DNA of 64,000 bases from Candidatus Zambryskiibacteriota bacterium (GTDB lineage Bacteria; Patescibacteriota; Minisyncoccia; Phycocordibacterales; DATDWN01), in the NCBI GenBank assembly GCA_026394775.1, contig JAPLZY010000008.1:53367-117366 (forward strand). Reading direction: 5' to 3'. The translations under genes and the position numbers were made by a program. Shown one piece after another: positions 3,038 to 64,000 of the stretch. The notes beneath the pieces are model-generated. The model had not been told where the DNA came from. It saw only the letters and a list, made by a program, of their open reading frames with translations, and ran no database searches. The number at the start of each line of letters is the position of its first letter. The first letter of the stretch is position 1.

Positions 3038-3751
3038 ATGAAAATATTATATATAGCATGTATTGCTCTCCTGTGTTGTGTCGGATTTTGCGCAAGTGTT
3101 TTTGCTGAGGTCAGTCAGTTTACTTTTGTCACAAAAGAACAGGTAGTAGCTCCGCAGAGTATTTCAGGACCACTGACAATACAGTCGCAAAGCAGTGGAG
3201 GGGTAGGTGAGTCTGTGGTTGAAACAATGGACATGTTTTTCCAGAGTTCATCGGCTACGGGGAAGTTTTTAGGGAGCTCTGGTAAGACAGCTTCTAAAAC
3301 TATGTCAAAAAATACGAGCAACCGTACTTTTTATTACACTGACCCGACTCTTGGTAAGCACACAATAACAGTGAAGGTTATGGGTCGGACATCTAAAAAA
3401 TCTTACACTACTACACAAAGTATATTTATCGGCATACCTTCGGCGACTGTGCAGACAACAGTCTTACCTAGCGTTTCAAAAAAAGAAGTACTTAAAGAAA
3501 GTAAGAAGGTTTTAGTAAAGGTACCCCAAAAGCCTGTTTCTAAAAGTTATCCTGTAGATATAAAAAATACTATCTCGAAAACCGAAGTTTCGGATGCGGT
3601 GCCGATAAGTAGTTCAACTGTACCAGAAATCCATGCCACAACTTCAAGTATTGTTGCAAATGTGCAGTACAGTACACAAAACCCCTCAGCCCTCGAATCC
3701 ATGCTTTGGCTGCCTCGTAAAATATGGAGCACTCTCTTGAGGATATTTTGA
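3038..3751 (+). CDS. secreted Ser/Thr-rich protein (hypothetical)
   Basis: N-terminal signal peptide MKILYIACIALLCCVGFCASVFA. The rest is low complexity and S/T/V-rich. Confidence 0.5.
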   Translation: MKILYIACIALLCCVGFCASVFAEVSQFTFVTKEQVVAPQSISGPLTIQSQSSGGVGESVVETMDMFFQSSSATGKFLGSSGKTASKTMSKNTSNRTFYYTDPTLGKHTITVKVMGRTSKKSYTTTQSIFIGIPSATVQTTVLPSVSKKEVLKESKKVLVKVPQKPVSKSYPVDIKNTISKTEVSDAVPISSSTVPEIHATTSSIVANVQYSTQNPSALESMLWLPRKIWSTLLRIF

Positions 3752-7132: not shown

Positions 7133-7244
7133 CATTGAGCACGGGGAAAATTTTAAATTTAAAATTCTAAATTTCAAAACAAAATGCATGTGCATCCGTT
7201 TTAAAATTTGAAATTAGAAATTTGAAATTCATCCCGCTCTTAGC
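7133..7244 (+). repeat. AT-rich imperfect palindrome inserted in 23S domain I (helix 9-type IVS/expansion)
   Basis: gaaaattttaaatttaaaattctaaatttcaaaac ... gttttaaaatttgaaattagaaatttgaaattc forms a long hairpin. It is closed by ccggcacatcac/gtgatgtgccgg. Confidence 0.55.
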
Positions 7245-8922: not shown

Positions 8923-9416
<494 letters not shown>

Positions 9417-17878: not shown

Positions 17879-18091
17879 GTGATGGATGCTAACACTCTAA
17901 TTGCAGGAAGTGAACTCCCTGCACGGATAAGAAATCTTTGCAGGGATTATCCCTATTTAGGTAAAACCTTTGGGGACCTTGCAACCTATAAGTCCTATGA
18001 GCTCCGCCGATGGCGTCATGTCGGAGAAGGGATTGTTGAGGAGACAAAAGTTGTCCTCAAAAAGGCAGGTCTCGAATTTACCGACAACTAA
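17879..18091 (+). CDS. stand-alone RNA polymerase alpha-subunit C-terminal domain (alphaCTD)-like protein
   Basis: 70 aa ELPARIRNLCRDYPYLGKTFGDLATYKSYELRRWRHVGEGIVEETKVVLKKAGL matches the alphaCTD helix-hairpin-helix pattern. A GGAGG lies upstream, which is rare here. Confidence 0.45.
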   Translation: MMDANTLIAGSELPARIRNLCRDYPYLGKTFGDLATYKSYELRRWRHVGEGIVEETKVVLKKAGLEFTDN

Positions 18092-29732: not shown

Positions 29733-30955
29733 AAAAAGGTGCCTACTCTAAAGAGGTAATGATTGTTGGAGGAATTTTGGTTCTCGTAGCTATTGTTCTT
29801 TTTGGTTTACCACAGGTTTTCCCTGATACATATACTAACCAAGCTTTGGTGCTCGCCATTAAAGAAGAGAGTAAGGTAGAGGATATACCAGCTCCCCAGG
29901 TGGCGACTCATGTTGCTACTCCTTCTGCGGTTAAAGCAATCTACATGTCACAGTGTGTGGTAGGGACACCGAGTTTTAGAAAAAAGCTCGTTGATTTGGT
30001 GGACACTACTGAACTTAATTCGATCATGATCGACATTAAAGACTTCTCGGGGACTATTGGCTTTAAAACAACAAACCCACTTCTTGCCTCTGCTTCTATG
30101 AAAGGATGTGGAGCATATGATATGAAAGAATTTATCGCGAGCCTTCATGAAAAAAATATTTATGTCATCGGTCGCATTACCGTCTTCCAGGATCCATTTT
30201 ATACAAAAGCATATCCAGAGCAGGCTGTGCAAAGCAAGTCTTCGGGTACACCATGGAAAGACCGTAAAGGGCTTTCATTTATCGATGTCTCAAGCAGGCC
30301 CTATTGGGATGTAGTTGTGGCACTTTCCAAAGAGTCGTATGAGCTTGGTTTTGATGAATTAAATTATGATTACATTCGATATCCGTCTGATGGAAATATG
30401 ACAGATACGTCGTATGTAAACCCTAATAAGCAAGAAGCGCTCGAAACCTTTTTTAAGTATCTTCATGAGAAAGTAAGTCCACTTGGAGTGGTTACCTCTG
30501 CAGACTTGTTTGGCATGACAACAGTCGCATATGACGATATGGGTATAGGGCAGATTCTTGAGCGAGCACTACCATATTTTGATTATATTGCACCTATGGT
30601 CTACCCATCTCATTTTGCAAAAAATTTCAATGGATACGCTGATCCAAATAAAAATGTGTACGGGGTGATTGAGCATTCGATGAGTGAAGCAGTAAAGCGA
30701 ACAGAAGCGACAACAACACGCTTTGCATTTATCGGAGCAGAACCTATTGCATCTACTTCACCAAAGCTTTACAAGAAACCTGCATATCCGCGCACCAAAC
30801 TACGCCCATGGCTTCAAGATTTTAGTTATGGAGGAACCTATGGTCCAAAAGAGGTGAGAGACCAGATACAAGCAACCTATGATGTAGGGCTGACTTCGTG
30901 GATGTTGTGGGCTCCTTCGAATAACTATACAAAGGGTGCTTTGGAATCAATTTAA
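29729..30955 (+). CDS. membrane-anchored putative glycoside hydrolase (TIM-barrel GHL10/DUF4015-like)
   Basis: N-terminal TM anchor. Motifs GFDELNYDYIRYPSDGN, YVIGRITVFQDP and PWLQDFSYGG are typical of the family. Confidence 0.5.
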   Translation: MKKGAYSKEVMIVGGILVLVAIVLFGLPQVFPDTYTNQALVLAIKEESKVEDIPAPQVATHVATPSAVKAIYMSQCVVGTPSFRKKLVDLVDTTELNSIMIDIKDFSGTIGFKTTNPLLASASMKGCGAYDMKEFIASLHEKNIYVIGRITVFQDPFYTKAYPEQAVQSKSSGTPWKDRKGLSFIDVSSRPYWDVVVALSKESYELGFDELNYDYIRYPSDGNMTDTSYVNPNKQEALETFFKYLHEKVSPLGVVTSADLFGMTTVAYDDMGIGQILERALPYFDYIAPMVYPSHFAKNFNGYADPNKNVYGVIEHSMSEAVKRTEATTTRFAFIGAEPIASTSPKLYKKPAYPRTKLRPWLQDFSYGGTYGPKEVRDQIQATYDVGLTSWMLWAPSNNYTKGALESI

Positions 30956-31044
30956 AATTTAAAATTTGAAATTATTTTCTTACCTATACACAGCAACACT
31001 AAGGTGCATTGTGCATACTTTCTATTGTATAATAACTAATAATT

Positions 31045-58800: not shown

Positions 58801-58974
58801 TGTAAAATAAAAAAAAGTTATCCACAACATTTATTAAAAAAATATTGTAATGGAATCAAACTCGTATGATAATTAACGCAGGTCGGAATAATAAATGTGA
58901 AAATATTTATTACGAACTTTTAAAAATTAATTTATTTTGTGTCGACCGGCAACGGAAGATGCTAAAAAAATAAC

Positions 58975-59061
58975 ATGGCAGCAAAAAAGAAAGTTGTAAA
59001 GAAAGTTGCAAAAAAAGCAGCTCCAAAGAAGAAGAAAGTAGCAGCAAAAAAGAAAAAGTAA
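58975..59061 (+). CDS. 28-aa Lys/Ala-rich basic micro-protein
   Basis: MAAKKKVVKKVAKKAAPKKKKVAAKKKK, followed 12 nt later by a terminator (59074-59101). Confidence 0.3.
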   Translation: MAAKKKVVKKVAKKAAPKKKKVAAKKKK

Positions 59062-62491: not shown

Positions 62492-62872
62492 ATGAAAAAG
62501 CAAATCCTTATCATTTTAGCGGTGTTGGTAGTAGTGCTTGGTGGTGCTTTTTTTGCAAGAAAAAACACAGCACCGAGTATATATGACACATTTGCTCAGT
62601 GTATAACAGACAGCGGAGCAAAGTTTTACGGTGCATTTTGGTGTCCACATTGTCGAGACCAAAAGGCAATGTTTGGAAGCAGTGCCAAGCTCTTGCCTTA
62701 TGTAGAGTGTTCAACTCCAGATGGACAAAGTCAGACACCGATATGTAAAGAAAAAGAGGTGAAGAGTTATCCTACATGGACTTTCACAAATGCTTCAAGT
62801 ACCACAGGTACAGTCGAGCTCGCTGACCTTGCAACAAAAACAGGGTGCGCGCTTCCCGTAGTAACAAACTAA
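62492..62872 (+). CDS. thioredoxin-fold protein (periplasmic partner of the VKOR-like protein)
   Basis: Signal/TM anchor followed by the FWCPHC redox motif. Confidence 0.6.
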   Translation: MKKQILIILAVLVVVLGGAFFARKNTAPSIYDTFAQCITDSGAKFYGAFWCPHCRDQKAMFGSSAKLLPYVECSTPDGQSQTPICKEKEVKSYPTWTFTNASSTTGTVELADLATKTGCALPVVTN

Positions 62873-62877
62873 TTTCC

Positions 62878-63411
62878 ATGGAAGCAACTCTTTTACAATC
62901 AATCGCATCTCCCACTATAGTCACTGCGACTTTGGTGTCCAATATTATTTTTGTCGCATTTTTGATTGCGTACAATGTATCAGGAGATGTAGAGAGGGGA
63001 GCTAAAAATTATCTTAAAAAAAATATAACCCTCGTGCTCTTTGTTGTCAGCGCCACAGCATTTGTCGGAAGTCTCGCTTATTCAAATATTGTAGGCTTCC
63101 CACCGTGCGAGCTTTGTTGGTGGACACGCATCCTCATGTATCCGCAGGTACTTCTTACGGCCTGTGCATTATGGAAGAAAGATTCAAATATTGTAAATAC
63201 ACTTCTTCCTCTTTCAGTACTTGGTTTTCTTTTGACCCTGTACCACTCATTCATCCTCTGGGGAGGGAAGTCCATACTGCCTTGTACCCAAGAGGGGGCA
63301 GCATGCAGTAAGCTCTATGTCATGGAATATGGATACATCACTATTCCGGTGATGGCACTCTCATGTTTTGTTTACTTACTGACCGCTACTTACATATACA
63401 AAAAATTTTAA
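62878..63411 (+). CDS. VKOR/DsbB-like membrane thiol oxidoreductase
   Basis: Four TM helices with membrane-embedded CELCWW and a loop Cys pair. ATG at 62878 is in frame with track ORF 62845. Confidence 0.6.
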   Translation: MEATLLQSIASPTIVTATLVSNIIFVAFLIAYNVSGDVERGAKNYLKKNITLVLFVVSATAFVGSLAYSNIVGFPPCELCWWTRILMYPQVLLTACALWKKDSNIVNTLLPLSVLGFLLTLYHSFILWGGKSILPCTQEGAACSKLYVMEYGYITIPVMALSCFVYLLTATYIYKKF

Positions 63412-63414
63412 ATC

Positions 63415-63440
63415 AAATCATCCGCACATGCGGATGATTT
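63415..63440 (+). terminator. hairpin terminator
   Basis: atcatccgca-ca-tgcggatgat followed by ttt. Confidence 0.6.
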
Positions 63441-63473
63441 TAATAAGATGTATTAGTCACACAGGACTTATCC

Positions 63474-63660
63474 GGCCTATAAGACCTATCTGACTTATGT
63501 ATGTCCTATCAGCTTAAGTCCTCTATCTGACCTATGCACCTCATATGACCTATCGGTCATATCTGACCTATTGTGTCATATTGGATTAAGACCTATTTGA
63601 CCAATAAGACTTTACACAGGCACAAGACCAACTCGACTTATTTGACCAATCAGTCCTATT
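63474..63660. repeat. iteron-like array of ~10 direct heptamer repeats GAC(C/T)TAT
   Basis: gacctat at 63483, 63529, 63547, 63565 and 63590. gacttat at 63492 and 63635. gtcctat at 63503 and 63653. ggcctat at 63474. Two 16-mers, gacctatttgaccaat and gacttatttgaccaat, lie 45 bp apart. Confidence 0.6.
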
Positions 63661-63676
63661 AATTTAATTTTAAAAT

Positions 63677-64000
63677 ATGGAAAAAAATAAAATAACAATC
63701 GCAGTCCACAATGGAAGTTTTCATGCTGACGATGTCTTTGCTGTCGCCACACTTCTTCTTATGATTGAGGAAAAATATAATAAAGAATTGTCAGGGGAGA
63801 AGTATGGCGTGGAGGTGGTACGTACAAGAGACCCAGAGGTTATAAAAAACGCAACGCATGTGGTGGATGTGGGCGGGGTCTATGATCCAGAGACAAACCG
63901 CTTTGACCATCATCAGGAAGGGGGAGCAGGAGTACGAGAAGACGGCATACCATATGCCTCATTTGGGTTGGTGTGGAAGCAATACGGGGAAGAGCTTTCA
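63677..64000 (+). CDS. MYG1/UPF0160-family metal-dependent hydrolase (3'-truncated by the window edge)
   Basis: ITIAVHNGSFHADDVFAVATLLL is the typical N-terminus of the family. The ORF is open to the window end. Confidence 0.5.
   Translation, partial: MEKNKITIAVHNGSFHADDVFAVATLLLMIEEKYNKELSGEKYGVEVVRTRDPEVIKNATHVVDVGGVYDPETNRFDHHQEGGAGVREDGIPYASFGLVWKQYGEELS

Follow-up and report, generated by a model that had tools for sequence, protein, structure and literature searches.

Near the end of the 64,000-nt stretch of DNA analyzed here (the window), one heptamer motif is densely repeated between the genes for a DsbB-family and a MYG1-family protein. The locus raises the question of whether these repeats are replication iterons or another protein-binding array, as the original prediction proposed from the density of the motif, or a repeat of a different kind. 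The array was found to be real and statistically solid, and its reading as an origin wrong. The features of the locus, all on the + strand, are listed below.

62878–63411, +: DsbB-family disulfide oxidoreductase gene (gene call in the identical Logan contig L001; Pfam DsbB 34.5 bits, cutoff 22.1)
63416–63441, +: terminator-like hairpin, AATCATCCGC / GCGGATGATT, with a 10-bp stem and loop ACAT, then TTTT (read from the sequence)
63465–63661, +: nonamer array of ~22 head-to-tail 9-bp units, consensus GACCTAT+NN
63642–63670, +: candidate MYG1 promoter, TTGACC (63642–63647), 17-bp gap, TAATTT (63665–63670) (read from the sequence)
63677–64000, +: start of the MYG1-family gene (311 aa), which continues past the window end (gene call in L001)

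Structure and surroundings of the array

The array lies in a 265-bp spacer (63412–63676) that runs from the stop codon of the DsbB-family gene to the ATG of MYG1. In this spacer, the hairpin with its TTTT is followed by ~23 nt of unique sequence, the array, 15 nt of AT-rich sequence, and the ATG. Dynamic-programming segmentation of 63465–63661 resolved ~22 units compared to the ~10 originally predicted, and the dense repetition of one motif between an operon terminator and a MYG1-like gene is thus stronger than claimed. The units follow the formula GWCYTAT (the 7-bp core) plus two free bases, with the whole array on the + strand. Fifteen of the 22 units were well preserved, four had a length other than 9 bp, and GTCCTAT, GTCATAT, GACCAAT, and GACTTAT occurred as variants. 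Rather than recurring every 9–25 bp, as first described, the block was strictly periodic at 9 bp by both segmentation and autocorrelation. The latter peaked at lags of 9, 18, 27, and 36 (0.44, 0.45, 0.38, and 0.35, respectively; other lags ~0.2–0.3), and the array was the most periodic stretch of the 64-kb window. The two longer units that had been noticed 45 bp apart were recovered at 63590 and 63635, where they are 89% identical over 19 nt.

Exact GACYTAT occurred 25 times in the 64-kb window (14.75 ± 3.8 expected), with 8 of the 25 occurrences in 63465–63641, all on the + strand. By our own arithmetic, its density in the array is ~300-fold that of the rest of the window. The more degenerate GWCYTAT matched the array region 10 times on the + strand and twice on the − strand. 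The two-unit pattern GACCTATNNGACCTAT, with up to three mismatches, matched the window 15 times compared to 3.8 ± 1.95 expected (shuffle maximum 8), and 11 of these matches fell in the array. Elsewhere in the window GACYTAT was not enriched, a result that counts against the original prediction. Neither a second array nor a second copy of the block was found in ~80 kb of this genome, and a small candidate array at 17983 lies within a small ORF and was dismissed as a chance match.

The upstream gene had been called VKOR, but its Pfam match is DsbB; it ends a DedA / thioredoxin-like / DsbB run. The mechanical ORF of this gene opens at a GTG at 62845, overlapping the thioredoxin-like gene, whereas the contig gene call opens at 62878. 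The identification of the downstream gene as MYG1-like was borne out (Pfam MYG1_exonuc, 222 bits), and the identical protein P0001 is the MYG1 family protein of a Candidatus Zambryskibacteria MAG (NCBI). Relatives are Paceibacteria / Parcubacteria. Identical Logan contigs extend 7.5 kb before the window start (FtsK, large ORFs, L10/L12) and 8 kb past its end (MYG1, Obg, GatB, a MerR-like gene, and a large ORF).

The hairpin at 63416–63441 also appeared in the inverted-repeat listing and was not flagged by the consensus scanner. A homologous hairpin is present at the equivalent position in the related locus L086 (GCA_046599035.1), and analogous ones in L088, L330, L331, L334, and L335. In array-free relatives, the terminator is followed by the MYG1 ATG after only ~20 nt. 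The consensus scan of the spacer detected no promoter and a single weak hairpin, which lies inside the array. The candidate MYG1 promoter, whose −35-like TTGACC comes from the penultimate repeat unit, likewise fails the scanner; from its position we infer only that transcription from it would begin at or near the MYG1 ATG. A collagen-like or ISP-repeat pseudogene or other coding repeat was rejected, as all six frames of 63465–63661 contain at least two stops, and no gene occupies the position of the array in any relative examined.

The sequence of the array was identical in four independent metagenome assemblies (SRR20698652, ERR15302172, ERR15302175, and ERR15302191). In a further sample, ERR15302176, contig L003 ends at ~63655 and L084 begins at 63632, both inside the 3′ part of the array, and in L003, unit 5 has lost 1 bp (GTCC-AT). 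This break and deletion hint at within-population variation or at an assembly problem at the repeat. Together with a weak 20-nt inverted repeat that flanks the block (63440–63459 / 63643–63662, 75% complementary), they are what could be cited for a MITE or other mobile-element insertion, or for a phase-variable contingency repeat controlling MYG1. Both of these are very improbable. The MITE was rejected, having only this weak inverted repeat and no second block copy in ~80 kb, and the arrays of relatives described below vary in length and flanks and have neither terminal inverted repeats nor target duplications. The same unit number in the four independent assemblies argues against a rapidly switching contingency locus, and the tract lies upstream of the −35 element, not between promoter elements or in an ORF.

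The origin question

The part of the original prediction that concerned replication did not hold. No dnaA, dnaN, or rep gene was found in the ~80 kb that comprise the window and its flanks (7.5 kb on the upstream side, 8 kb on the downstream side); that the window itself has no adjacent rep or dnaA gene had been correctly noted, and this extends over the 8 kb past its end. The proposed link to oriC through GC skew was not seen: the skew is positive across the locus and for 4.5 kb beyond the array, with no switch in the ~80 kb. DnaA boxes (TTATCCACA, up to one mismatch) were at chance frequency (20 matches compared to 18.9 expected), and none lies in the spacer. Replication iterons have units of ~17–22 bp, whereas the units of the window are 9 bp long and contiguous, which is outside iteron length and is not iteron phasing. 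In relatives, the same nonamer forms several arrays per 10 kb, some of them within ORFs, and we know of no origin whose repeat occupies several spacers of a 10-kb region and also lies within coding genes. Because there is no dnaA or rep gene, no excess of DnaA boxes, and no skew switch, and because the unit is 9 bp and relatives carry arrays in ORFs, the array is not a replication origin. Direct repeats of one motif, densely packed beside a short AT-rich stretch, do resemble initiator iterons or an oriC-associated array, but against this evidence such an assignment has next to no chance of being correct. The other part of the prediction stands, in that a binding array remains a plausible reading of a dense, one-strand motif.

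A single perfect DnaA-box-like GTTATCCACA is located elsewhere in the window, in an AT-rich stretch at 58815–58826 (AAAAGTTATCCACAAC). It is just upstream of a promoter-like TTGTA...TATGATAAT, ahead of a tiny lysine-rich ORF (58967–59061, MAAKKKVVKK...) that precedes secA. This layout is kept across many Paceibacteria loci (L086 ~4200, L088 ~5530, L331 ~1840, L335 ~2080, L008, L015, L021, L044, L066, L068, and L074). In L332 (~6700) and L333 (~5760), a similar box precedes the large ORF downstream of the MerR-like gene.

The same nonamer in related genomes

The window was compared with ten closest-clade loci, whose MYG1 is 59–66% identical to that of the window (61–68% by global alignment); SecA is 83–90% identical among six of these loci and the window. 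Three of the ten (L086, L331, and L333) carried nonamer arrays, at 2–6 arrays per 6–10 kb. L086 has 5–6 arrays in 10.5 kb, filling the junctions of its DedA-Trx-DsbB-MYG1-Obg run; one of them has ~14 units. Its orthologous DsbB–MYG1 spacer contains a 4-unit array directly after the homologous terminator hairpin. L331 has two arrays, with inverted units at their 5′ edge. L333 has four arrays, and both ends of its contig fall inside arrays. The L333 array before Obg has ~19 units, and an L333 array is built from a 27-bp higher-order repeat of three units (5.3 copies, 97% match). Within GatB of L333 (4292–4386), GCCCTATAA is repeated 10.6 times and is read in frame as (Ile-Ser-Pro)n. This (ISP)n sits in a 60-residue insertion, which is missing from the GatB proteins of the window, L088, and L329. 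The large downstream ORF of L333 (6128–6240) contains 12.6 copies of GTCCAATTA without a mismatch, again in frame as (ISP)n, giving a perfect (ISP)12. Counting the one in the window and the 11 in these three relatives, 10 of the 12 clade arrays are intergenic.

Among the loci examined, no nonamer array was found in L005 (62%) or in six further close relatives (L088, L329, L330, L332, L334, and L335), and no nonamer cluster in 77 GTDB species with a MYG1 homologue (≤62% identity, ~10 kb per locus). In these 77 species, the DsbB and MYG1 genes mostly abut or overlap without a motif cluster, and a conserved MYG1 regulatory element was therefore discarded. Shuffle controls yielded 0–0.25 arrays per locus. 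A motif-blind scan for 9-bp periodicity over ~90 Patescibacteria loci recovered only these nonamer arrays and no 9-bp array of another motif in the relatives. A weak candidate upstream of DsbB in L075 was below the threshold. Since relatives bear the same nonamer and neither the shuffles nor the blind scan show arrays otherwise, the array in the window is shown to be a member of a dispersed, clade-restricted family of 9-bp tandem repeats, and not a single-copy control element.

The number of units at the orthologous DsbB–MYG1 site was 22, 4, or 0. The comparison shows that growing arrays add one to several units at a time and that arrays are gained or lost among close relatives. They fill spacers which measure ~0–12 nt in array-free relatives. 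The last unit is ~12 to 35 nt from the next start codon in the relatives, and arrays often open at the preceding stop codon. This behavior is what would be expected of a selfish or neutral satellite, i.e., junk that is generated in a reduced, repair-poor genome through slippage or unequal recombination, has no host function, and is tolerated in spacers and, if the reading frame is kept, in ORFs. The patchy presence among relatives with 83–90% SecA identity, the variable unit number at the orthologous site, the perfect 9-bp and 27-bp expansions and in-frame (ISP)n insertions in GatB and the large ORF of L333, the filling of whole spacers, the breaking of contigs at arrays, and the lack of a fixed distance from unit to start codon all speak for such a satellite. 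What speaks against it is that a single motif underlies all strong 9-bp arrays in ~90 loci, which random slippage would not give, that the window array is invariant across four samples, and that its positions are not eroded equally (see the next section). A functionless satellite is thus a serious possibility, although we think it somewhat unlikely.

Beyond the clade, the pattern GWCCTAT-NN × 3 was searched in viral and metagenome collections, and the following statements cover the matches listed. Most of the viral matches listed were unrelated collagen-like Gly-Pro-Ile/Met (GPI/GPM) coding repeats and were rejected as relatives. At least 47 metagenome matches were short non-coding arrays in soil contigs of 50–65% GC. 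Examples are given below.

L209–L328: soil-contig arrays, e.g., L215:1606–1707, L258:342/7668/9477, L276:378–415, and L232:13170–13207

Among the matches listed, the unit of the soil contigs is the palindrome TAGGWCCTA, present 3–5 times directly after stop codons, often between convergent genes. Some of these listed arrays are inverted pairs that form a long hairpin, often flanked by heptamer-repeat hairpins. One soil contig was assigned to Pyrinomonadaceae (Acidobacteriota) by named homologues at 63–78% identity. The arrays of soil contigs and of Patescibacteria may share a common mechanism or the motif alone.

Several further repeats were observed. In the metagenome contigs L222, L266, and L304, nonamer arrays encode (Y-R/K-S/T)n in frame, as insertions immediately ahead of the conserved Y-K/R-TGDL motif in what appear to be NRPS adenylation domains. 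L281 (37% GC) carries a five-unit nonamer array on its minus strand (3068–3604), antisense to the flanking ORFs, and at 2336–2378 an SPSYPSYPSYPS insertion in a UvrC-like protein. In the window, AT-rich 7-bp tandem units (AAATTTT / TTTGAAA, AATTTAA) form intergenic hairpins or tracts at 7146–7229, 9271–9302, and 30949–30973, which resemble STRR-type repeat hairpins. Similar heptamer hairpins were seen in the relatives L027 (~5276), L053 (~7830), and L079 (~800).

Every array in the clade is sense to its flanking genes. The array might therefore act at the RNA level: transcribed as intercistronic or 5′-leader RNA, its GACCUAU motifs could serve as sites for a multimeric RNA-binding protein or could influence the stability or termination of the transcript. 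Several arrays end too close to the next start codon for a promoter to fit in between and must thus be transcribed, the + strand of the window array is C-rich and G-poor (C 50, G 28), and for the STRR repeats of cyanobacteria, an influence on the stability of transcripts or on translational coupling has been proposed (PMC2670836). However, in the Rfam scan of the spacer nothing came close to a gathering score, and the sense strand folds with a z of only −2.2 compared to −4.5 for the antisense strand (both relative to shuffles). The window array is located downstream of a terminator hairpin. The gene strand equals the direction of replication in every case, so the orientation is uninformative, and the low-GC contig L281 bears a similar array antisense to its neighbors. 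Altogether, an RNA-level element appears improbable, and the co-orientation of all arrays with flanking genes does not separate it from a role at the DNA level.

Conservation of the core and comparison with known systems

The nine positions of the unit are not equally conserved: every array keeps the core, and its two spacer bases vary at random. In the window array, G1 and C3 were each found in 18 of 21 units, A6 in 20 of 21, and T7 in 17 of 21, and core positions 2, 4, and 5 are two-state, whereas the information at spacer positions 8 and 9 amounts to 0.16 and 0.09 bit. The match to the consensus was 0.77 in the core compared to 0.36 in the spacer (Fisher p = 1.3e-6), with significant heterogeneity over the positions (chi-square 36.5, p = 1.4e-5). 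Pairwise identity between units was 0.61 for the core and 0.255 for the spacer, with a compositional background of 0.26. At every lag from 1 to 10 units, spacer identity equaled the background and core identity remained at 0.61. No trace of recent duplication is therefore left in the window array, yet the core persists.

The register of the repeat was set using the core, which may bias these values toward core conservation. However, 57 distinct units from relatives independently gave the same profile: 1.70, 0.70, 1.16, 0.59, 1.04, 1.78, and 1.44 bits over the core and 0.05 and 0.34 bits in the spacer. The spacer dinucleotides vary from array to array, which means that the arrays do not represent copies of a single module. 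Simple neutral decay after duplication of a unit, which should erode all nine positions equally, does not explain this core-only conservation. With the core conserved and the spacer at background, something apparently reads the 7-bp core.

The maintenance of the core and the satellite-like spread are most economically reconciled by a factor that recognizes the core, either a DNA-binding protein or an enzyme that propagates the arrays. Our preferred reading, to which we assign a probability of about 0.5, is that the window array is an old, locally expanded member of the family whose cores are maintained by a putative sequence-specific factor, with cooperative DNA binding as the favored form. 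Sequence-specific recognition would keep the 7-bp cores intact. The putative trans-acting factor would place one subunit on each core, keeping strictly to a 9-bp (weakly 18-bp) register, and cover the spacer by cooperative binding, as ribbon-helix-helix proteins do on contiguous heptads or met boxes. The coated stretch would span from just past the DsbB terminator to the −35 region of MYG1, and its likeliest effect would be on MYG1 transcription or on the insulation of MYG1 from the upstream operon. Alternatively, the factor reading the core could be an enzyme that propagates the arrays.

This factor is supported by the kept core and background-level spacer, in the window and independently in the 57 units of relatives, and by the stability of the array, identical in four samples. 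The contiguous, in-register units on one strand would also agree with cooperative binding. On the other hand, no small DNA-binding gene specifically linked to the arrays was found, and none is adjacent to the window array; array-free relatives, too, have the nearby MerR/HTH_17 gene. Equally close relatives have no arrays. With a unit-to-start distance of ~12–35 nt and arrays that open at stop codons, there is no fixed operator–promoter geometry. The perfect recent expansions and the in-frame arrays in GatB and the other ORF show that the repeat spreads regardless of the regulatory context, and a 9-bp period sets successive sites on different faces of the helix.

A more far-reaching version is that the GWCCTAT+NN nonamer is a self-propagating repeat of a previously undescribed kind, its spread and maintenance driven by a dedicated core-recognizing factor in at least two phyla (Patescibacteria and, through Pyrinomonadaceae, Acidobacteriota). 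We regard this version as unlikely. If true, it would mean that such a repeat has spread in spacers and, in frame, in essential genes.

If the cores are kept by a binding factor, they would point to an unrecognized protein–DNA or protein–RNA system in a small-genome lineage. Such a system would coat intergenic spacers and could remodel operon structure, because the repeats open up spacers where the same genes adjoin each other in relatives; it could also add peptide repeats to housekeeping enzymes. On the practical side, short-read assemblies of Patescibacteria MAGs are interrupted at nonamer arrays, and such arrays can be misread as origins or operators.

Searches of the literature for this sequence, for nonamer repeats, and for tandem repeats of Patescibacteria returned nothing relevant, and we found no published description of this nonamer repeat. 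Several known systems share part of its properties. Ribbon-helix-helix proteins bind arrays of abutting 7–11 bp units, such as the omega heptads of pSM19035, the 8-bp met boxes of MetJ, and the ParR/ParG repeats, with one dimer per unit, cooperative binding, and tolerance of occasional inverted units. The nonamer units similarly abut without gaps, have a conserved core, and include inverted units at the 5′ edge of the L331 arrays. In contrast to these systems, no cognate gene adjoins the window array; its 22 units are more than is typical, and the family also occurs inside ORFs and in many spacers.

Iterons and DnaA-box clusters, like the window array, are direct, protein-binding-like motifs on one strand. 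The nonamer differs from them in unit length and phasing, in having no initiator gene, unwinding-element architecture, or skew switch, and in forming multiple arrays per 10 kb in relatives. REP/BIME elements are likewise short, dispersed, and extragenic, and the Acidobacteriota version of the nonamer, TAGGWCCTA, is palindromic and located just after stop codons. The window array is direct and non-palindromic, and neither a RAYT-like gene nor REP architecture was seen. The Rickettsia palindromic elements are repeat DNA of a reduced genome that is found in spacers and, in frame, in unrelated housekeeping genes (PMC10969869); the (ISP)n arrays in GatB of L333 recall them. However, those elements are ~150 bp long and palindromic, whereas the nonamer family consists of arrays of a 9-bp unit.

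The known system that comes closest is the STRR family of cyanobacteria, made of tandem short (7-bp) units that are dispersed, mostly intergenic, lineage-restricted, and of no known function (PMC2670836). These repeats are also reported inside functional genes, as in the RNase P RNA gene. As in the STRR of heterocystous cyanobacteria, the window array has a short head-to-tail unit, and its clade family is dispersed, lineage-restricted, and mostly non-coding. The multi-locus character of STRR is seen in L086, L331, and L333, with one array in ~80 kb of the genome of the window. The nonamer differs from STRR in its 9-bp unit, in which a 7-bp core is joined to two free spacer bases, and in its host, a reduced-genome Patescibacterium. 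This unit is frame-neutral and, within protein genes, is read in frame. Should the arrays be no more than selfish satellites, they would present a 9-bp, frame-neutral counterpart of the STRR puzzle of cyanobacteria.
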